Part shown: positions 11,234-61,075 of the stretch, piece after piece | Numbering within the stretch: the first letter of the stretch is position 1 | Layout: every line of letters begins with the position of its first letter | Assembly (NCBI GenBank): GCA_027486765.1 | Contig: JAIXOO010000063.1 | Span: forward strand, 12,890 to 76,889 | Length of the DNA stretch: 64,000 bases | From: Saprospiraceae bacterium | GTDB lineage: Bacteria > Bacteroidota > Bacteroidia > Chitinophagales > Saprospiraceae | Direction of reading: 5' to 3' | Translations under genes and position numbers: made by a program | Notes under the pieces: model-generated | What the model saw: only the letters and a program-made list of their open reading frames with translations | Databases searched by the model: none | What the model was told of the DNA's origin: nothing

Positions 11234-12238
11234 TTAAAATGCGTTCACCCCGTTAACGGTGGTATATTTAAAGCTCAATTTTTTGTCTGGATTCACCCGT
11301 TTAAAGGCCGATTGGCACATCAAGGTAGCTTCGTGGAAACCGCACAAGATCAGTTTCAACTTGCCTTGGTAAGTATTGATGTCACCAATGGCGTACACTC
11401 CCGGGATGTTGGTGCTGTAATCCAAGGTATTTACTTCAATGGCGTTTTTATCCACATTCAAGCCCCAGCTGCCCAAAGGCCCGAGTTCGGGCGACAAGCC
11501 AAAAAGTGGGATAAAATAATCCGTAGGGCGTACCACTTCTCCCTTTTCCTTGGTATCAATCACCACATCGGTCAACACTCCATTGCCACGCAGACCAGTA
11601 GTTTGTGAGTCAGTCAACAAGTCAATGCGGCCACTGTGGGCCAACTCGTGTACTTTTTCTACTGAATCGGGTGCGCCACGGAAGTCCTTACGGCGGTGAA
11701 TCAGCGTCACTTCACTGGCTACTTCGGCCAGGAAAATGGTCCAGTCCAACGCGGAGTCACCTCCACCAGCGATCACTACCCGTTTATTGCGGTATTTTTC
11801 TGGATCCCGGATGATGTAATCGATGCCTTTGTCCTCAAAACGCTCCAGGTTCTCAAGTGGTGGTTTGCGGGGTTCAAAACAACCCAATCCGCCCGCAATG
11901 GCGATCACGGGTGCCTTAATTTGGGTGCCTTTGCTGGTAGTCAGCAGAAAGTGCCCATTTTCGAGTTGTTCAAATTTTTCAGCCCGCTCACCCAGGGTAA
12001 AGCCGGGTTTAAAAGGCTCAATTTGCTCCATCAGGCGATCAACCAAATCACCAGCCAAAATAGAAGGATACCCAGGGATATCGTAAATTGGCTTTTTTGG
12101 ATAAATTTCAGCCAATTGACCACCAGGTACTGGCAGTGAATCCACCAGGTGGCAGCGCATCTTCAACAATCCGGCCTCGAATACTGTGAAGAGCCCTACT
12201 GGCCCTGCTCCTACAATGAGAATGTCTGTCTGGATCAT
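11234..12238 (-). CDS. Thioredoxin-reductase-type ferredoxin-NADP+ reductase
   Basis: GAGPVG FAD site, GGQLAEIYPKKPIYDIPG, GGGDSALDW; no CxxC redox pair. Confidence 0.9.
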   Translation of the reverse strand: MIQTDILIVGAGPVGLFTVFEAGLLKMRCHLVDSLPVPGGQLAEIYPKKPIYDIPGYPSILAGDLVDRLMEQIEPFKPGFTLGERAEKFEQLENGHFLLTTSKGTQIKAPVIAIAGGLGCFEPRKPPLENLERFEDKGIDYIIRDPEKYRNKRVVIAGGGDSALDWTIFLAEVASEVTLIHRRKDFRGAPDSVEKVHELAHSGRIDLLTDSQTTGLRGNGVLTDVVIDTKEKGEVVRPTDYFIPLFGLSPELGPLGSWGLNVDKNAIEVNTLDYSTNIPGVYAIGDINTYQGKLKLILCGFHEATLMCQSAFKRVNPDKKLSFKYTTVNGVNAF

Positions 12239-12284: not shown

Positions 12285-13010
12285 TTATTTGTGTTTGTTG
12301 ACGAAAAAACCGGGATGTAATCCACATTCTGTTTTTCCAGTTCCTGCCCAGCGACCTTCGCGGCCTTTGCCTTTTTGGGTACAATGGGTGCATCCAATTG
12401 AGCCATAGCCCTGACTTTCCAGTGGGTGTTGGGGCAAATTGAACCAGGAAGACCAGTACAAATAATCCCCTTCAGTCAGGTCGATCAATGGATGGAATTT
12501 TATGATGTCGCCCTGCTGCTCAAAAATACGCAGGTGCGAACGGAAATCTGTTTGATACGCCATCAAACCCGAAATCCACACTTTGTGCTCCTCCTTGAGG
12601 GGCTCCAGGGGAACCACTTTGTTGATGGAGCAACACATTTTGGGATGGTCTTTCCACCACTCCTCGTCACGAGTCAGGGCATTTTGGGTTGGGTCGGGAA
12701 GAACATTGATTACATTGAGTCGGTACAACTCGGTGAGTTCTTCTTTGTAGGCAAGGGTTTCGGGAAAATGGTAAGTGGTATCGATGAAATATACCTTCTG
12801 GGCGGGCCGGTGCTCGGAAATTAACCGCAGCAGAAATGCAGCGCTGGCACCAAAGGAAGAAGTCATCAAGACTTCATTGTCATCGAAAATTTCATACAAC
12901 TTCTGAATACGCTCCTCAAAATTCAGTGGCTCAAAAATCTCATTCAGGTACTCTACACTATACTCCTCTACGTCGAGTTCAGGAGTAGGTAAGGCTTGTG
13001 ATGTCGACAT
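12285..13010 (-). CDS. cysH: (Phospho)adenosine phosphosulfate reductase
   Basis: TSSFG, FIDTTYHF, CCSINKV, GYGSIGCTHCT and EGRWAG...TECGLH. The CC and CxxC motifs point to the [4Fe-4S] APS-reductase type. Confidence 0.93.
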   Translation of the reverse strand: MSTSQALPTPELDVEEYSVEYLNEIFEPLNFEERIQKLYEIFDDNEVLMTSSFGASAAFLLRLISEHRPAQKVYFIDTTYHFPETLAYKEELTELYRLNVINVLPDPTQNALTRDEEWWKDHPKMCCSINKVVPLEPLKEEHKVWISGLMAYQTDFRSHLRIFEQQGDIIKFHPLIDLTEGDYLYWSSWFNLPQHPLESQGYGSIGCTHCTQKGKGREGRWAGTGKTECGLHPGFFVNKHK

Positions 13011-13156: not shown

Positions 13157-13801
13157 TTATTTTTTCAAAAATTCAATACAATTCCCAGTACAGTTGCCCC
13201 CACATTCACATCCCGCCATGCCCGTTAGCAAGGTTGAGGTAATTTGATTGAGCATCCGCACTTTATGCGCGAAATCGCCACCGAGACGGTCGCGGATTTC
13301 GTTGAGTTTAGGCAGTAGGTCTTCCACTTCTTCCGGCAACGCGGCCTCCAATACCTGGCGGAAACGTTTGGCAAAAGTCGGCGACTGCCCATTCGTTGAA
13401 ATTCCAATTTTCAAAGGCCCGCGGGTCACGATTGATCCGAGGTAAAAATCACAGAGATCAGGTGTATCGGCTACGTTGATCAACTTGCCACTTGCTTTGG
13501 CGGCTTGTTGCACTTCGCGGTTCAATTCCGGGATGTTCGTTGCGGCAATGATCAGATCATGCCCCTGAAGATCCTCGATCTGAAAAGCTTTGTGCTGAAT
13601 TTGTACAAAGTGGGTTCCGATCTGACTCAGCAATTTTTCAATCTCCGGGTTTACCCAAGTGGCTACCATTGTAACCTGGGCTTTGGGGCTGCTTTTGAGG
13701 ATGAACGAGAGTTTTTCGTAACCCACTTCCCCGGCGCCTACTATGAGGGTACGCAGGGTGTGTAGTTTCAAAAAAACCGGATACAACTCGTTTTGCTCCA
13801 T
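13157..13801 (-). CDS. Precorrin-2 dehydrogenase / sirohydrochlorin ferrochelatase (SirC, CysG N-terminal-like)
   Basis: YPVFLKL, IVGAGEVG, NVADTPDLCDFY and ISTNGQSP. Probable ATG at 13801, just after the cobA stop; the ORF track starts at 13855. Confidence 0.9.
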   Translation of the reverse strand: MEQNELYPVFLKLHTLRTLIVGAGEVGYEKLSFILKSSPKAQVTMVATWVNPEIEKLLSQIGTHFVQIQHKAFQIEDLQGHDLIIAATNIPELNREVQQAAKASGKLINVADTPDLCDFYLGSIVTRGPLKIGISTNGQSPTFAKRFRQVLEAALPEEVEDLLPKLNEIRDRLGGDFAHKVRMLNQITSTLLTGMAGCECGGNCTGNCIEFLKK

Positions 13802-13802
13802 C

Positions 13803-14606
13803 TTAGACGCTGATGTGTTCATTGGTAACTTTCCCCTTTTTTGACAAAGCCACATAATTTGGCTCGGCTTGTTTGTATTGAGGGTGCAAAGCTACTACAT
13901 CTCCAATAACTATAATGCCTGGAGAACTCGCATCAGCCATTGCTACACGTTCAGACAGGTTGTGTACACGCCCCAAGACAACTTTTTCCTCGGGCGTAGA
14001 ACCATTTTGAACCACCATAGCTGGAGTATCTTTTTTACCTAGGGCCGTATAAATGTCCATGATGTCACCGAGCTTGCGCATGCCCATCAAGATGACCGCA
14101 GTAGCACTGGACTGAGCCGCCAATTCTACATCTTTGGAGATGCTGCCCGAGCGGGTTGTACCCGTTACCACCCAAAAACTTTCATTGATGCCCCGACAAG
14201 TTACCGGAACACCTTGCAAGCCCGGAACTGCGATGCAGGAAGAAAGCCCTGGAACGATGTCCACTTTGATACCAAACATGGCCGCATGGGCCATTTCTTC
14301 GTAGCCACGACCAAAAACGAAGGGGTCGCCACCTTTCAGACGCACCACATGACCATGATTCATGGCGTATTCTACCAACATCCAGTTGATGTCTTCCTGA
14401 GGGTGGGTGTGTTTGGAGGCGCGTTTGCCAACATCCACCAGGATCGCACCGGGGCGCACCATGTCGAGCACATCGTCGCTTACCAGAGCGTCGTAGAGTA
14501 CGACGTCGGCTTGCTGAAGCGCTTTCCAGGCTTTGATCGTGAGCAGTTCTGGATCACCAGGACCTGCACCAACGAGGGTTATTTTGGGTATGATTGGATT
14601 GGTCAT
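13803..14606 (-). CDS. cobA: Uroporphyrinogen-III C-methyltransferase
   Basis: LVGAGPGDPELLT, VVRLKGGDPFVFGRG and VPGLSS motifs. Confidence 0.95.
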   Translation of the reverse strand: MTNPIIPKITLVGAGPGDPELLTIKAWKALQQADVVLYDALVSDDVLDMVRPGAILVDVGKRASKHTHPQEDINWMLVEYAMNHGHVVRLKGGDPFVFGRGYEEMAHAAMFGIKVDIVPGLSSCIAVPGLQGVPVTCRGINESFWVVTGTTRSGSISKDVELAAQSSATAVILMGMRKLGDIMDIYTALGKKDTPAMVVQNGSTPEEKVVLGRVHNLSERVAMADASSPGIIVIGDVVALHPQYKQAEPNYVALSKKGKVTNEHISV

Positions 14607-14719: not shown

Positions 14720-16876
14720 TTACGCGCGATAGTAATCGCCGACTACCTTTTTATCGATGCCGTTGCTTCCTTCCAATTGAACTTCACGCTGTGCGATGAC
14801 CGAGCGTACAAAAGCATCTGCTTGAGCAACGTAGTCGCTGGCGAAGTTTTCTTCTGGTTCGTATTGGTTGATTTGCAAAACGGTTGCAGTAAAATCCTTC
14901 AGCAGGGTATAATCACCCGTCGCTACGTAGTGGGTTTGAAAGTCGTCGATGACACCTTTTTGGGTGTTGCACTTCACGTCTTTGCTCAACAACATCCCCT
15001 TGGCAGCCACCACAAAGGATGCGTAGCTGGAATAAATCGCATCCGACCACAGGCCTTGTTCGAGGGATTCTTTTGCCACGGCAATTTTGTCAATGGCGTC
15101 TTTGAGGATTACCCCAACCATGTCCAGCATGACCCCGGCGCATTCGCCTACCCCGATTTCCTGCTTGTACAGGCGATCCTGGCCCCAGTCAAAATATTCC
15201 TCCTGGGTCATGGTTTTGAGATCAGCCAATGGTTTTAGCAGCGCGTAGAAGTATTTGTCGCCCTGGCGGAGGAAGTAATCGTTGTAGTATTCTCCTTCGC
15301 CACCATTTTTTTCAAAGTCATCCAACACGTATCGCACTACATCGGGGATACGTTTGGTAGGCACTTTGACAATTTTGTCGGCGATGAAGCCGCGCCCATC
15401 AGGGGCAACTCCACCGCCCAAAACGACCTGCATAGCTGGAATAACCAAATCCCCGTGTTTGAATGAACTACCGTGGAAACCCAAATTGGCAGCCATGTGC
15501 TGGCCGCAGGCGTTCATACAACCACTTATTTTTATCTTAAAAAACTTCTCGTCGATCAATTCAGGATACTCTTCCCGAATCAACTCCTCCAAAATCCTGG
15601 ACAATCCGGTGCTGTTCGTTACCCCCAGTGCACAAGTATCGGTGCCTGGACAAGCGGTAATGTCGGCAGTAGAATCGGCACCTGGCAGAGCCAACCCCAG
15701 TTCGTGCAATTTGTTGAACCAAAGTGGCAATGCCTCAGGGCGAACAAATTTCAGCAAAATGCCCTGGTTGATGGTAAAGCGGATGTCATCAGCGGCGTAT
15801 TGTTTGATGACTGCAGCCAAGGCACGTGCCTTGTCGGAAGGTAAGTCGCCCAATACTACGCGCACATACACGCCATAATACCCTTTTTGCTTTTGTTCAA
15901 AAGTGTTGGTACGCTTCCATTCCTGGTACCAGTGTTCGTCTACGGGGGCTAACTCAGCCGGGATGATGCCTTGTCCAATTGGTGCTTCTTCAGGCACCAG
16001 GTTGCGATCAATGGCAACTGTTTTATTTTTCAGCGCTTTCCATTCTTGAGTTACCAGTTCCATCCAAGCTTCAAAACCCAGTTTTTGGATGAGGAACTTC
16101 ATCCGTGCCTTCATGCGTTTTTCCCGCTCGCCGTAGCGGTCGAATACCCGTATGCCAGCTTCCATGAAAGGAATAATTTGGTCTTCGACCAAAAATTCGT
16201 AAGCCACCAAACCTGTAATTGCTTGGGCACCCAAGCCACCACCAACTAGTACTTTAAAGCCACGTTGTTCCTGGCCATCCACTACTTGTACTTTGGGGAT
16301 AAAGCCATAATCATGGAAATACGTGAAAGCAGAATCTTCTTCGCTGGAAGAAAAGGCAATTTTGATTTTGCGACCCATTTCCTGACAGATCGGGTTGCGC
16401 AAGAAGTATTGGAAAGATGCTTCGGCATAAGGAGAAACATCAAATGGTTCTTTTGGGTCGATTCCGGCGGTAGGCGAAGCGGTGAAGTTCCGTACAGTAT
16501 TGCCACAAGCTTCACGCGCCGTAAGGTTCATTTGCGCCAACTCCGTCCATACTTTGGGAGAATTTGCCAGTTTTACATAGTGCAACTGGATGTTTTGACG
16601 GGTTGTGATGTGCAGGTTACCCGTAGCATAACGGTCAGATACATCTGCAATGCGCACCAACTGGTCTGAATTGATGCGACCATAAGGCAATTTGAGACGA
16701 AACATTTGCACCCCTTCCTGGCGCTGGCCATACACACCTCTGGTCAGGCGATACAAGCGGAAACGCTCGGTATCTTCTTTGCCCCGCTGAAAATCATGGA
16801 TGCGGCGCTCCAATTCCTGGATGTCTTTTTGATCTGCTGCACTTACGGTAGAAAAGTCGTGTTCGTAATTGCTCAT
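14720..16876 (-). CDS. Ferredoxin-dependent sulfite/nitrite reductase with a C-terminal HEPN-like domain
   Basis: GVYGQRQ, TTRQNIQLH, EACGNTVRN and siroheme-[4Fe-4S] cysteines (ACPGTDTC, GCMNACG). The operon with cysH and siroheme genes favours sulfite reductase. Confidence 0.92.
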   Translation of the reverse strand: MSNYEHDFSTVSAADQKDIQELERRIHDFQRGKEDTERFRLYRLTRGVYGQRQEGVQMFRLKLPYGRINSDQLVRIADVSDRYATGNLHITTRQNIQLHYVKLANSPKVWTELAQMNLTAREACGNTVRNFTASPTAGIDPKEPFDVSPYAEASFQYFLRNPICQEMGRKIKIAFSSSEEDSAFTYFHDYGFIPKVQVVDGQEQRGFKVLVGGGLGAQAITGLVAYEFLVEDQIIPFMEAGIRVFDRYGEREKRMKARMKFLIQKLGFEAWMELVTQEWKALKNKTVAIDRNLVPEEAPIGQGIIPAELAPVDEHWYQEWKRTNTFEQKQKGYYGVYVRVVLGDLPSDKARALAAVIKQYAADDIRFTINQGILLKFVRPEALPLWFNKLHELGLALPGADSTADITACPGTDTCALGVTNSTGLSRILEELIREEYPELIDEKFFKIKISGCMNACGQHMAANLGFHGSSFKHGDLVIPAMQVVLGGGVAPDGRGFIADKIVKVPTKRIPDVVRYVLDDFEKNGGEGEYYNDYFLRQGDKYFYALLKPLADLKTMTQEEYFDWGQDRLYKQEIGVGECAGVMLDMVGVILKDAIDKIAVAKESLEQGLWSDAIYSSYASFVVAAKGMLLSKDVKCNTQKGVIDDFQTHYVATGDYTLLKDFTATVLQINQYEPEENFASDYVAQADAFVRSVIAQREVQLEGSNGIDKKVVGDYYRA

Positions 16877-16923
16877 GGTTTTTGTGTGTGGCCCACGATT
16901 TGAGTCGCGGTATGTTTTGGATT

Positions 16924-16961
16924 AAAAAAGCCCTGTCAGATAGAATCCGGCAGGGCTTTTT
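16924..16961 (-). terminator. Intrinsic terminator in the 5' leader of the sulfur operon (attenuator)
   Basis: Minus strand reads AAAAAGCCCTGCCGGATTCTATCTGACAGGGCTTTTTT: GC-rich stem plus U6, ending 47 nt before the start codon at 16876. Confidence 0.85.
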
Positions 16962-16992
16962 ATGCTAAAGGACAATATATGTACACATCAAG

Positions 16993-17085
16993 CTATACCC
17001 CTGCCAGTCGGCTGCAACAGCACGCACAACAACAACCCATCGTTGGGTTATTCAGTGTGGACAGTGGCTTGGATGTTGCGAGCAT
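16993..17085 (-). CDS. Cys-rich leader peptide MLATSKPLSTLNNPTMGCCCACCCSRLAGV (predicted attenuator peptide)
   Basis: Hand translation: ATG at 17085, second in-frame ATG at 17040, TGT TGT TGT GCG TGC TGT TGC, TAG at 16993-16995. It lies between a promoter and the terminator. Confidence 0.8.
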   Translation of the reverse strand: MLATSKPLSTLNNPTMGCCCACCCSRLAGV

Positions 17086-17146
17086 ATTTTTGTGTTTTGG
17101 ACCAGTTGCATCGCAATATTGCTTGCACTAGTGTGATTTCACAGTG

Positions 17147-17177
17147 CAAGTATAGGGGCATTTTTTTTTCCGTGCAA
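17147..17177 (-). promoter_or_regulatory. Promoter of the leader peptide and sulfur operon
   Basis: Minus-strand TTG (17175-17177), 20-nt spacer, TATACTTG (17147-17154; one mismatch to TAnnTTTG). Confidence 0.6.
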
Positions 17178-17259
17178 TTATTTTAAGAGAATTTTATCAT
17201 TTTTTTGATGTCAAAATACTTGAACATATATTCATATGTCCCTTTAATCGTGAATTTTG

Positions 17260-17293
17260 TACGTTCAGGGTGCTTAAAAACACCCTGAACGTA
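17260..17293. terminator. Hairpin downstream of the S8 peptidase
   Basis: Perfect 13-bp stem TACGTTCAGGGTG/CACCCTGAACGTA; no strong U-tract. Confidence 0.5.
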
Positions 17294-17311
17294 ACTTATT
17301 TGATTACAAAA

Positions 17312-18826
17312 TCACTTTAATCGTTTCACTACCGCTAGTGGTTGGATGAATTTGCCAGTCAAGCTGGAGTTGCGGGTGTTGATCCCTGTTTCAGTAAGAA
17401 TTTTATGGGCTTGCTCTGTGGTGAGGTCAGGATTGATGCTTTTCATCAAACCCAGCAAACCTGCAACATAAGGTGTGGCCATGGAAGTGCCATTGTAGGT
17501 CTCGTAGCGGTTGTTGGGTATGGTGGAATAAATGCCAACCCCGGGGGCGGCAACCCCAAATGGAATGTCTTGCACAAAATTGGAGAATTCCGCGCGGTTG
17601 AGCTCGTTGTCTACTGCAGAAACTCCAATGACACCTTTGGAATTGACCGGGCTAAACTGCGCGGCATTGCGATTGGAATTTCCGGCAGCAACCACCACGA
17701 TCGCACCTTTATTATTGGCGTACTTCACCGCTTTGTCGTAGGCTTTTTGCCGACTTTGATTGCTCGGGCCGCCGAGTGACAGCGAAATCACATCCGCATT
17801 GGCATCTGCTGCTTTGATGATGCCATCAATGATGGTTTGTTGGGTACCAAATCCTTGATCGCCCAATACCTTTACACTCGTGATGGTGGTGAAGCGGTTG
17901 TCGCGGGAATAAGAGGCCACTCCTACCCCATTGTTGGATACGGCTCCGGCGATGCCAGCACAGTGGGTCCCATGCCCTTTGAGGTCGCGGTTGGATGCGG
18001 CGTCAATGGATTTAAAATTGGCTTTGAGGTCTTCGTGGTTGCCATCCACTCCGGTGTCCAGAATGGCGATTAGCGCTTTACGCACTGGTTGTACCTTATT
18101 TTGATCCAAATAATTGTACAGCTGGTCCATTTGCATGCGCTCAAAGCCCCAAAGATTGGCCACACCGGGGTCGTTGATCCCAAATTTGGACGGCAATTTC
18201 GTGGGGTTTTCAGCTTTGCGCAGCGGCTCTACCTGAATGAGTTCGTTTTCTTCGGTCCATAGCACTGCGCTGGAACGGCTCAATTGTTGCTCAATGCGCA
18301 CCAAGTTGTTGGCTTTGGCATCAGGAATATCGACCACGTAATAGTTATCGAGTTCGGTAGAACTGGCGTCCTTGGGAAAAAAGGCCCGCCGCAGGTTTAG
18401 TCCGTATTTTTTGGAAATTTCATCCAACTCGCGTACCTGATGCCCTTCTTTTAACTCCAACAAAATCTCACCTTGAGCATCTAGTGGAATTTGGCTGTGG
18501 TAAGGAAAAGTGGTACTTACAAATTGGCGGTAAAACCAAAACAGGGCCACTAAAGCCAAAACCACCCCAACCCAAAAGCCTTTGCTCCAACCGGCCATGC
18601 GGCTAAAGATGGCGCCGAATACCCCCAAGAAGAGCATATCCCGAAAAACCGTCTGGAACTTGTACACCATCGGCGCAGCTGCGGTCACCATACTCATGGA
18701 GTACAATATCAGCGCCAAGAACATCAAACGGCTAAAGTATTTTTCAGCCAATTCGCGCTTTAAAGCGAACCAAAGTGCCAATGCCACGAAGGCTACGACA
18801 AAACTGAGACCATATAACGCGATCAT
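17312..18826 (-). CDS. S8 (subtilisin-family) serine peptidase with an N-terminal polytopic membrane region
   Basis: Catalytic triad motifs ILDTG, HGTHCAG and GTSMA; about four hydrophobic helices in the first 100 aa. Confidence 0.92.
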   Translation of the reverse strand: MIALYGLSFVVAFVALALWFALKRELAEKYFSRLMFLALILYSMSMVTAAAPMVYKFQTVFRDMLFLGVFGAIFSRMAGWSKGFWVGVVLALVALFWFYRQFVSTTFPYHSQIPLDAQGEILLELKEGHQVRELDEISKKYGLNLRRAFFPKDASSTELDNYYVVDIPDAKANNLVRIEQQLSRSSAVLWTEENELIQVEPLRKAENPTKLPSKFGINDPGVANLWGFERMQMDQLYNYLDQNKVQPVRKALIAILDTGVDGNHEDLKANFKSIDAASNRDLKGHGTHCAGIAGAVSNNGVGVASYSRDNRFTTITSVKVLGDQGFGTQQTIIDGIIKAADANADVISLSLGGPSNQSRQKAYDKAVKYANNKGAIVVVAAGNSNRNAAQFSPVNSKGVIGVSAVDNELNRAEFSNFVQDIPFGVAAPGVGIYSTIPNNRYETYNGTSMATPYVAGLLGLMKSINPDLTTEQAHKILTETGINTRNSSLTGKFIQPLAVVKRLK

Positions 18827-28515: not shown

Positions 28516-28539
28516 CCCACGAATAAATTCGTGGGCTAC
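28516..28539 (-). repeat. GTAG-type REP-like palindrome
   Basis: Minus strand reads GTAG-CCCACGAATTTATTCGTGGG; the TAG is the stop codon of the transglutaminase gene. Confidence 0.8.
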
Positions 28540-29420
28540 TGTTGTTGTTGTTGCTGCTGCAAAAACCAGTTGTAATCCTTGCTGTTGCGCACCGACACTT
28601 CATAAGAAGTTTTGTGATCTCCGTCGGTGACCAGTACCCCTTTGATGGGTTGGCAATCGAGGTAATCTCGTCCATGGGCAATTTTGATGAAGTGGTCGTT
28701 TTCTTGCAGGTTGTTGGTGGGGTCGAAGCCACGCCAACCTAATTTGGGAATAAACACCTCCACCCAGGCGTGTAATTGGGAATCTCGATTGTCGCTCAAA
28801 CTCAGGTAACCGGATACGTAGCGGGTTGGAATGTTTTGTTGCCGCAAAATCCCAATCATGATGTGCGCAAAATCCTGGCAAACCCCGCTGCCTCCTTGCA
28901 ATGCTACTTTTGCGCTGGTGCCTGTATTGGTAGAGCCTTGCACATATCGCAACATGCCGTGAACCGCCGAATTGAGTCGCAACAAATACATCCCTACCGT
29001 TTCTTCCTTTTGGCGCAACAAATCTAGGTAAAAATCACCGGGTTTGAGACTACTCAGGGCAGTACTTTGTAAAAAAGACTGGTGATCCATCTGAAAATCA
29101 ATGTCTTCCAGGATTGAGTTTTCTTCCTCCAGGCTCAAATCAGTAACCACATTCAAGGTCGGCTGATTTTTGGCTACCTGTGCCAGCAAACTCACCGAGA
29201 AAAAATCAAAAGTATCTGCATTGGAATGAAAATGATAAGTGATAAACCCATACTTGTTGCGCGCAGTAAAGGGTTCACGAGGCATAGAATGCAACAATCG
29301 GTGATGTTTGACCATTTGTGATTCATTTTCACAAGGGATAATCAAAAACTCGTAAGCGCCTTGCTTAACGGATTTTTCATATTCGGTCACCGTGCGGTAT
29401 TCAATTACGTAATCGGTCAT
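28536..29420 (-). CDS. Transglutaminase-like protein with a C-terminal Q7 tail
   Basis: GVCQDFAH, LHAWVEV and FDPTN catalytic triad motifs. Confidence 0.92.
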   Translation of the reverse strand: MTDYVIEYRTVTEYEKSVKQGAYEFLIIPCENESQMVKHHRLLHSMPREPFTARNKYGFITYHFHSNADTFDFFSVSLLAQVAKNQPTLNVVTDLSLEEENSILEDIDFQMDHQSFLQSTALSSLKPGDFYLDLLRQKEETVGMYLLRLNSAVHGMLRYVQGSTNTGTSAKVALQGGSGVCQDFAHIMIGILRQQNIPTRYVSGYLSLSDNRDSQLHAWVEVFIPKLGWRGFDPTNNLQENDHFIKIAHGRDYLDCQPIKGVLVTDGDHKTSYEVSVRNSKDYNWFLQQQQQQQ

Positions 29421-60295: not shown

Positions 60296-61075
60296 TTAGT
60301 TCTTAAAAAGAGCAATTAACACTGCGGCTACTGTTGCTGCTGCTGACAAAATGGGTACCGCCTTTGAGCTCTGGTCTTGCACAGCACCTGCTTTGGCCCT
60401 TAAGGGCTTCACATAAATCAAATCATTCTGCTTAAGAAAGTAATACTCTGACTGAAAAAAAGCAGCCGATTGAAGATTGATCCGATTCAAGGATCTCGCG
60501 CCATTACTTTCCCGAACAAGCAATATTTCTTTTCGATCCGCATAATCCGTTAAATCACCAGCCAGGGCTAGTGCATCAAGTACGGAAATGCGTTCATTGA
60601 CAACATTAAACGCACCAGGACTGCGGACTTCCCCTGAAACTGTCACTCTAAAATTCAGCAACCTCACATTTACTACGGGGTCTTTTAGGTGTAATTTCAG
60701 CTTTTCCACTAGTGAATCTTTAACTTCCGTAACGCTTAGCCCCTCCAGTTTCAGCCTTCCTAAAACCGGGAAATCAATCATTCCTTGCTGATTCACCAAA
60801 AAACCAGTCAGCTGAATAGATTCGATATTGACAAAACTCTCACTTTGCTGACTAGAGGTTATGTTAAAAGGGGCAACCAGTTCCATCTCCGTGCCAAATA
60901 CTTTGATAGACAACACATCATTCGGCTGAATTCTAATATCCGGCAACTTGTGAATAAGCAACTGGGGGCTATCTGGAAAATTTTCCTGATAGTTTACAAG
61001 TTGCTTATGAGAAACACAGCTTGTACCCGTAACAAGCAAAATAAAAACCCAAATAGAAATTAAAAAAATGCGCAT
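60296..61075 (-). CDS. wza: Outer-membrane polysaccharide export lipoprotein
   Basis: Lipobox GTSC, IQPND, G.IDFPVLG and GEVRSPG. Confidence 0.93.
   Translation of the reverse strand: MRIFLISIWVFILLVTGTSCVSHKQLVNYQENFPDSPQLLIHKLPDIRIQPNDVLSIKVFGTEMELVAPFNITSSQQSESFVNIESIQLTGFLVNQQGMIDFPVLGRLKLEGLSVTEVKDSLVEKLKLHLKDPVVNVRLLNFRVTVSGEVRSPGAFNVVNERISVLDALALAGDLTDYADRKEILLVRESNGARSLNRINLQSAAFFQSEYYFLKQNDLIYVKPLRAKAGAVQDQSSKAVPILSAAATVAAVLIALFKN

Follow-up and report, generated by a model that had tools for sequence, protein, structure and literature searches.

Whether a bacterium of the family Saprospiraceae can adjust its sulfite reductase to the supply of cysteine, and by which device, is the question raised by the locus described here. 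It lies in a window of 64,000 nucleotides (GenBank assembly GCA_027486765.1, contig JAIXOO010000063.1, positions 12,890 to 76,889 of the forward strand), in which a 435-bp gap separates the gene of an S8 peptidase (17312-18826) from that of a sulfite reductase and houses, on the minus strand, a short open reading frame (ORF) with a run of Cys codons. In an earlier note on the same DNA, made from the sequence alone, this region had been read as a predicted cysteine-sensing attenuator. The best explanation, and in our judgement a very probable one, is indeed a classical leader-peptide transcription attenuator that senses cysteine via tRNA-Cys charging and controls the sulfite reductase together with a siroheme and (phospho)adenosine phosphosulfate [(P)APS] reductase cluster. 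The argument is built on the sequence elements themselves, on their conservation across species, on the reading frame of the Cys run and on the position-dependent outcome of folding. For the comparisons, 80 orthologous sulfite reductase loci were collected, one per species-level genome and with up to 700 nt of upstream sequence, which together with the window make 81 (related loci are given below by their L numbers). The elements in the gap are the following:

17147-17177, minus strand: promoter-like site, TTG at 17177-17175, 20 nt, then TATACTTG at 17154-17147; by consensus match only
17086-17140, minus strand: predicted 5′ untranslated region of the leader, about 55 nt, with a hairpin at 17132-17101 and the A-rich AACACAAAAAU before the ATG; from folds
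16993-17085, minus strand: leader ORF, 30 codons from the ATG at 17085 plus TAG (16995-16993), peptide MLATSKPLSTLNNPTMGCCCACCCSRLAGV; read from the sequence and translated
17014-17034, minus strand: regulatory codons Cys 18, 19, 20, 22, 23 and 24 (UGU UGU UGU GCG UGC UGU UGC); read from the sequence
16999-17007, minus strand: 5′ strand of the antiterminator, CUGGCAGGG (leader codons 27-29), which pairs with CCCUGCCGG at 16955-16947 in the terminator 5′ arm
16961-16973, minus strand: spacer block GUCCUUUAGCAUA between stop codon and terminator, invariant in 8 relatives while its flanks vary
16924-16961, minus strand: intrinsic terminator, A5, stem GCCCUGCCGGAU / AUCUGACAGGGC with one C·A mismatch, U6 (16929-16924); from sequence and folds
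16893-16910, minus strand: small hairpin CCGCGA-loop-UCGUGG, kept in relatives and followed after 17 nt by the sulfite reductase ATG

As the earlier note had it, an ORF of 30 residues with six Cys codons in seven positions runs from 17085 to 16993 on the minus strand, a U6 intrinsic terminator occupies 16961-16924, and the sulfite reductase starts at 16876. A 31-nt spacer separates the leader stop codon from the A5 stretch of the terminator, whose hairpin reads AAAAAGCCCUGCCGG...CUGACAGGGC followed by U6 and has a core of -15 to -17 kcal/mol; a simple scanner misses it because of the C·A mismatch in the stem and the length of the loop. The last codons of the leader are complementary to the terminator 5′ arm: the proposed pairing of 17007-16999 with 16955-16947, with 8 Watson-Crick pairs and one G-U, was confirmed, and it excludes the terminator. 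The antiterminator duplex folds at -19.9 kcal/mol (z = -3.5 against 200 dinucleotide shuffles). The terminator stem is invariant in 8 relatives, both stems are invariant within the Haliscomenobacter clade, and GGCAGGGG, unchanged in that clade, is also kept in L009 despite a different peptide.

These elements suggest how the switch could work. Transcription would start about 55 nt upstream of the 30-codon leader, which a ribosome would translate while RNA polymerase proceeds. When Cys-tRNA is scarce, the ribosome would stall with one of the first five Cys codons in the A site, leaving the antiterminator strand free to pair with the terminator 5′ arm as soon as the latter has emerged; with the arm sequestered, the polymerase would pass the U6 stretch and the operon would be transcribed. 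When Cys-tRNA is plentiful, the ribosome would reach the last Cys codon or the UAG and cover the antiterminator strand, the terminator would form and the transcript would end at 16924.

The effect of ribosome position was modelled on the window by co-transcriptional snapshots, in which only the RNA 3′ of the ribosome was folded and the footprint reached 12 nt past the first A-site base. Before the 3′ arm of the terminator is made, the antiterminator is the minimum-energy structure with the A site at Cys18 to Cys23, and it is lost with the A site at Cys24 or at the stop codon. The proposal that a stall on the first Cys codons frees the antiterminator, which a ribosome at the stop codon covers, was in this way reproduced by the footprint folds, the strand being free at Cys codons 1-5 and covered at the sixth and at the stop. 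The probability of the terminator in the window is 0.45-0.50 when the ribosome is stalled at the first or middle Cys codon and 0.97 when it is at the stop codon; in L001-L006 the corresponding values are 0.00-0.36 (in L006 also at the last Cys codon) and 0.94-0.99. As isolated helices the two structures are nearly equal (-16.2 kcal/mol for CUGGCAGGG/CCCUGCCGG, -15.0 kcal/mol for the terminator) and, once the 3′ arm is present, the terminator together with a small hairpin (AGGGG with the spacer GUCCUUU) is about as stable as the antiterminator. Therefore, the switch must be kinetic, as in classical systems. Folding the entire leader at equilibrium under a 28-nt ribosome mask was rejected as a test, since the terminator prevails in most leaders under any mask and the outcome for the window depends on which 5′ and 3′ ends are chosen. 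Folding with and without the 3′ end of the ORF masked had been suggested as a check in the earlier note: the downstream-only folds switch by position, the whole-leader folds are uninformative.

The same layout is found well beyond the window. The earlier note had also suggested that Cys-run ORFs be sought upstream of orthologous sulfite reductase genes, and short poly-Cys ORFs were found there in 61 of the 81 loci, which belong to Saprospiraceae, other Chitinophagales and Cytophagales, with peptides that are otherwise unrelated. In 58 loci, the window included, a canonical terminator follows each poly-Cys ORF, 35 loci carrying two such units and 23 carrying one; nearly every poly-Cys ORF of the other loci is followed by a strong hairpin with a U run, and terminators are present after 92 distinct leaders in the related loci. 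The leader peptides share nothing but the Cys run (e.g. MNFNTHIANSINNITCCCCCCCIRIL, MTAMMCCCCCCCCCCQHTISGVEPG and MIKMNTCCCCCNFRR) and range in length from 15 to 58 residues in the longest-ATG reading; across loci, conservation is confined to the Cys run, the frame in which it is read and the layout. In the 92 distinct leaders the run counts a median of 6 Cys codons (range 3-10), the last of them is separated from the stop codon by a median of 7 codons (range 1-16), and the stop codon from the terminator stem by a median of 29 nt (range 15-53). In three further loci (L020, L025 and L026) a strong GC-rich hairpin also comes after the poly-Cys ORF, some 120 nt before the sulfite reductase, but its U run is poor; it may be a variant terminator or a different read-out, and an example is GGCCTTCTGACGTTTAC in Flavilitoribacter nigricans. 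The upstream sequence of one of the 81 loci was too short to be judged.

Could such a run be a product of chance, a low-complexity repeat of TGT and TGC that by accident falls within an open frame beside a terminator? The window does contain other TGY repeats: when stop-to-stop segments with at least 5 Cys in 7 codons were sought in the six frames of the whole 64-kb window, only three were returned, the other two being at 28539+ and 60322+. Neither of these has an in-frame ATG, and both were discarded as leaders. The run at 28539+ is the antisense of C-terminal poly-Gln codons, and that at 60322+ is an 8-codon segment in a region resembling minus-strand coding sequence. The former belongs to a minus-strand gene (28536-29420) that ends in seven Gln codons, which read as seven Cys codons on the plus strand (28536-28560) and mimic a poly-Cys leader. 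In the related loci, Cys runs (at least 4 in 7 codons) number 94 in the 53.8 kb of sense upstream sequence of the 80 loci, against 46 in 1.37 Mb of both strands elsewhere in the same loci, none of which exceeds 4 of 7. A metagenome scan for TGTTGYTGYTGYTGY-N25-55-GCCYTTYC, i.e. (TGY)5 together with a terminator-like word, yielded, among the matches listed, repeats that were nearly all unrelated to leaders; of the 80 listed loci, 5 had a short ORF with a hairpin and none had a downstream gene. The full layout, by contrast, is met again in 58 loci whose sequences are unrelated, and the comparative data refute the chance explanation, which is left with practically no probability.

Whether the run is read as Cys codons is the next question. 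An ORF that starts with ATG, spans the run and ends before the terminator exists in the Cys frame of 85 of the 92 distinct leaders, but in only 2 and 18 of them in the other two frames. In the 18 nt before the leader ATGs, A is more frequent (0.40 vs 0.30) and G less frequent (0.12 vs 0.20) than before other ATGs of the same regions. Bacteroidota initiate translation mostly without Shine-Dalgarno pairing, and the A-rich, G-poor start context of the leaders fits such initiation. In the window, the context AACACAAAAAU-AUG resembles that of the sulfite reductase itself (CACACAAAAACC-AUG). The first ATG of the leader is kept in the clade, whereas L004 has CTG in place of the internal one (codon 16) and L005 lacks it; close relatives exchange UGU and UGC synonymously at the Cys codons. 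On this reading, the leader ORF of the window would be translated.

The same features bear on the idea that the UGY repeat is an untranslated RNA element, i.e. a binding site for a protein or a small RNA or part of a structure, the Cys reading being incidental. (UGU)n is, after all, a simple repeat, and in the folds the UGY repeat of the window pairs with upstream ACC/AAC-rich sequence (17052-17044 with 17039-17031). The frame control (85 of 92 against 2 and 18), the third-position U/C exchanges among close relatives, the A-rich start context and the lack of a matching Rfam family speak against it, and we regard it as very unlikely. Slightly less likely still is that the ORF encodes a functional Cys-rich micropeptide, for instance a metal- or redox-binding one, made from its own small transcript that the terminator ends, with no sensing involved. 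The short ORF does have a promoter-like site and a terminator of its own, and six to ten adjacent Cys residues could bind a metal; yet nothing of the peptide is conserved outside the Cys run, its length varies from 15 to 58 residues, the unit is invariably the immediate upstream neighbour of the sulfite reductase in the same orientation and is often doubled, and the position of the antiterminator complement is tied to the stop codon, something for which an independent peptide gene would have no use.

For the cysteine-sensing attenuator, on the contrary, a complement of the terminator 5′ arm is part of the device, and across the family it is enriched. Of 93 leaders, 48% have an antiterminator complement at p<=0.05 (200 dinucleotide shuffles of the segment from the first Cys codon to the terminator). 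Of the 71 distinct terminator 5′ arms, 33 (46%) reach p<=0.05 for a complement further upstream (binomial p = 3e-24), and in 57 the true arm outpairs its reversed copy. The partner begins some 5-20 nt beyond the final Cys codon and extends to about the stop codon, where, according to the footprint model, it would be covered by a ribosome at the stop and free when the ribosome is stalled early in the run. The compensatory changes in the two stems that the earlier note had asked after are absent from the close clade, whose stems do not vary; in distant loci the stems differ in sequence and stay complementary (CUCCGGAAGGG/CCUUUCCGGAA in L013, CAGGAGGGCUU/AAGCCUUCCU in L015, UCACCAGG/CCUGGUGG in L063). 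Support for the antiterminator is good in the window and in its clade, and only statistical in the family as a whole.

Several observations weigh against the attenuator and have to be set beside the evidence in its favour. The invariance of both stems in the close clade means that there is no covariation there, and about half of the family leaders are without a significant antiterminator complement. When the whole leader is left free, or the A/U extension of the terminator is included, the terminator wins at any ribosome position; in the equilibrium model, a stalled ribosome makes only 16-18 of 91 family leaders lose the terminator (P<0.5), as compared with none at the stop codon. Since the terminator wins at equilibrium, the switch would depend on kinetic trapping of the antiterminator. 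The public RNA runs within reach are assembled metatranscriptome contigs of a relative about 91% identical, in which the whole region lies at flat depth, no local depth being given, and they are uninformative on transcript starts, ends and attenuation. Finally, 19 assessable related loci have no leader at all, among them L007 and L008, which have the same promoter region. The remaining leaderless loci (L032-L035, L039, L040, L046, L050, L058, L060, L061, L067, L069, L073, L074, L078 and L080) have no Cys-run ORF despite 166-1000 nt of non-coding upstream sequence; they come from Lewinella, Neolewinella, Roseivirga and some others, and a scan of 14 of these 17 against Rfam finds nothing upstream of the sulfite reductase.

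The leaderless loci with a common promoter region lead to the question of what else may control the operon. The consensus of Bacteroidota sigma-A promoters is -33 TTTG / -7 TAnnTTTG, and the earlier note had placed a promoter at 17177-17147; its coordinates and the match to the consensus stand, and promoter function is a plausible reading of them. The -7 box and the bases after it are unchanged in 8 close relatives. The box ends 62 nt before the leader ATG, from which a 5′ leader of about 55 nt is predicted, with a putative transcription start near 17140; the length of this 5′ untranslated region varies among relatives. Just upstream of the promoter, on the minus strand, lies a conserved block made of the palindrome ACATATGAATATATGT (17239-17224) and the box AAAAAAATGATAAAA (17206-17192). 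The box is found in the window, L001-L006, L009 and L018 as well as in L007 and L008, where the promoter is kept and both leader and terminator are missing. The block (17192-17239) looks like the operator of a transcription factor acting in parallel to the attenuator.

It may be asked, then, whether a transcription factor at the palindrome is the sole regulator, with the hairpin and U run ending transcription constitutively, insulating the operon or forming the 3′ end of a small RNA. The conservation of the palindrome and of the A-rich box, also in leaderless L007 and L008, agrees with this, as does the prevalence of the terminator at equilibrium in most family members. A constitutive terminator between the promoter and the only operon downstream of it would, however, silence that operon. 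The S8 peptidase gene upstream has a covarying hairpin of its own (17293-17260), and on this reading neither the Cys run nor the antiterminator enrichment is explained. Moreover, control by a transcription factor and attenuation need not exclude each other, the trp operon of Escherichia coli having both. This alternative is, on balance, improbable, although it is the least so of those considered. As to the peptidase hairpin itself, it comprises 13 bp on the 3′ side of the gene, its sequence differs in each close relative while the hairpin stays perfect, and no clear U run follows it on the strand of the gene.

Two further conserved elements lie between the leader ORF and the sulfite reductase gene. 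In folds that contain the terminator, the spacer block GUCCUUUAGCAUA pairs with AGGGG in the antiterminator strand, and its AGCAUA can pair with the leader start region (UAUGCU); the simple two-hairpin model leaves the block unexplained. The small hairpin at 16893-16910 has two pairs altered on both sides in L003 (CCAUAAC/GUUAUGG) and G-U changes in other relatives, and might stabilize the mRNA or have an effect on translation.

The genes that would be regulated are, in their order of transcription:

14720-16876, minus strand: sulfite reductase, ferredoxin-type, 718 residues, ATG at 16876, first regulated gene; Pfam NIR_SIR and NIR_SIR_ferr, homologues named sulfite reductase (ferredoxin)
13803-14606, minus strand: cobA-like methyltransferase; Pfam
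13157-13855, minus strand: sirC-like siroheme synthase part; Pfam
12285-13010, minus strand: cysH-like PAPS/APS reductase; Pfam
11234-12238, minus strand: FNR-like flavoprotein; Pfam

Pfam agrees with the identities given to these genes in the earlier note, and the cluster of five outlines a pathway toward cysteine as the end product. No convincing minus-strand terminator was found in its intergenic gaps, and sir-cobA-sirC-cysH-FNR are probably cotranscribed. The sulfite reductase of the window is 97-98% identical to those of Haliscomenobacter and of Saprospiraceae genome bins, and 57-72% identical to other orthologues from Saprospiraceae, Chitinophagales and Cytophagales. It extends about 190 residues past the NIR_SIR domains at its C-terminus (14723-15292, minus strand), a region with a borderline HEPN match (22.4 bits, cut-off 22), and several homologues are labelled HEPN domain-containing.

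Those features of leader attenuation that can be read from sequence and folds are all present: a Cys-run ORF before the genes of the pathway, a terminator before the first of them, an antiterminator that depends on ribosome position, and regulatory codons that are kept while the peptide drifts. From the identity of these codons, the signal to which the attenuator would respond is cysteine. The trp/his-type attenuators of E. coli, and those predicted in Flavobacterium psychrophilum, likewise combine an ORF rich in codons of the end product, a terminator before the first gene and a ribosome-gated antiterminator, with a possible parallel regulator at the promoter. The element described here differs from them in sensing cysteine, in its target, namely the sulfite reductase/siroheme/(P)APS-reductase cluster, and in its host phylum, where initiation takes place mostly without Shine-Dalgarno pairing. 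It further differs in that the competitor of the antiterminator in the terminated form seems, from the folds, to be at 16973-16967 rather than in the regulatory codons, and in the occurrence of two complete units in series in 35 related genomes. In Flavobacterium, leader-peptide attenuators have been reported for ilv, his and trp, not for cysteine, and the F. psychrophilum leaders of these three operons are predictions (PMC9723704 and its supplement).

Runs of Cys codons upstream of sulfur genes have been encountered before, in Actinobacteria. Among the amino acids sensed by leader peptides, cysteine had long been missing. Mycobacterial polycysteine leaderless ORFs (Ms5788A and relatives) regulate translation, in that they expose the Shine-Dalgarno region of the gene that follows (10.1101/834739), and the same 2020 study states that no attenuation for cysteine mediated by an upstream ORF had been described earlier (10.1101/834739); cys leader peptides with Cys runs and without terminators have been found in Actinobacteria (PMC1262725). 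These leaders share with the one of the window the consecutive-Cys ORF before cysteine or sulfur genes and the sensing by the progress of the ribosome over the Cys codons. However, the mycobacterial ORFs start at the 5′ end of the transcript and have no intrinsic terminator, whereas the ORF of the window is preceded by a predicted leader of about 55 nt and followed by a terminator/antiterminator. In the window, some 140 nt that include the terminator separate the Cys tract from the sulfite reductase ATG, and the tract does not pair with the start region in the folds. Thus, the mycobacterial precedent invoked in the earlier note holds as far as the regulation of cysteine genes by Cys-run ORFs is concerned, but it operates on translation and not on termination (10.1101/834739), and the element of the window is, by its sequence organization, analogous to the mycobacterial class and not a member of it.

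In Rhodobacterales, a ribosome-mediated attenuator has been predicted upstream of cysS, the uORFC-8-2 motif, which has Cys codons in an upstream ORF and ends in a U run (PMC8632094); it differs in having two Cys codons instead of six to ten, in its target (cysteinyl-tRNA synthetase, not sulfate assimilation) and in its host (Alphaproteobacteria), and shows no similarity in sequence or structure. Searches of Rfam gave no gathering-level match in the window, with only chance-level matches (E>=0.25) in 16000-18000, and none on the poly-Cys leaders of 14 other loci. Full-text searches, which did not extend to older non-open papers, brought up no account of a poly-Cys attenuator from Bacteroidota or from the upstream region of a sulfite reductase, in agreement with the earlier note, whose author knew of no characterized example in the phylum.

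The window carries a single leader-terminator unit. In the loci with two (L010, L012-L015, L017, L019, L021-L024, L029-L031, L037, L038, L041-L043, L045, L047-L049, L051-L053, L057, L059, L062, L066, L068, L070-L072 and L077), the second leader ATG follows the first terminator at a median distance of 25 nt, which leaves little room for a separate promoter, so that the two units are most simply placed in series on one transcript. Tandem riboswitches and T-boxes are known. In the mgtCBR leader of Salmonella, two attenuators in series sense different signals (PMC3641672); the arrangement is shared by the 35 relatives, where, however, both units carry Cys runs.

A Cys run is also seen in another setting at 2347-2600 of L063, a Cyclobacteriaceae bin, where an S-adenosylmethionine (SAM) riboswitch aptamer (Rfam RF00162, 66 bits) is directly followed by a 22-codon ORF ending in CCCC (MKKHTTPNSSKFFQSAGICCCC). 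Next come the gene of a Cys/Met-metabolism pyridoxal phosphate enzyme, a poly-Cys leader and the sulfite reductase. The CCCC ORF may represent a second gene context for Cys-run upstream ORFs, as a single case.

Beyond the window, the data would define an undescribed and widespread class of cysteine-sensing terminator/antiterminator attenuators, with 3 to 10 Cys codons, on the sulfite reductase operons of Saprospiraceae, other Chitinophagales and Cytophagales, often with two units in series. This would be the first case in which classical transcription attenuation by cysteine acts on an operon of sulfur assimilation, and in a phylum where initiation is not led by Shine-Dalgarno pairing; to this wider claim, we give about equal weight for and against. 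If it is true, the logic of the trp and his leaders has been recruited independently for sulfur, and the combination of a Cys run and a terminator would be a simple signature for annotating sulfur regulons in poorly studied Bacteroidota of activated sludge, fresh water and the sea. The tandem form would provide a sharper, two-checkpoint response, and the tandem loci would allow a natural test of whether two attenuators respond more sharply than one. At the same time, these leaders would make transcription-translation coupling accessible to study in a phylum that does not share the initiation signals of the model organisms.

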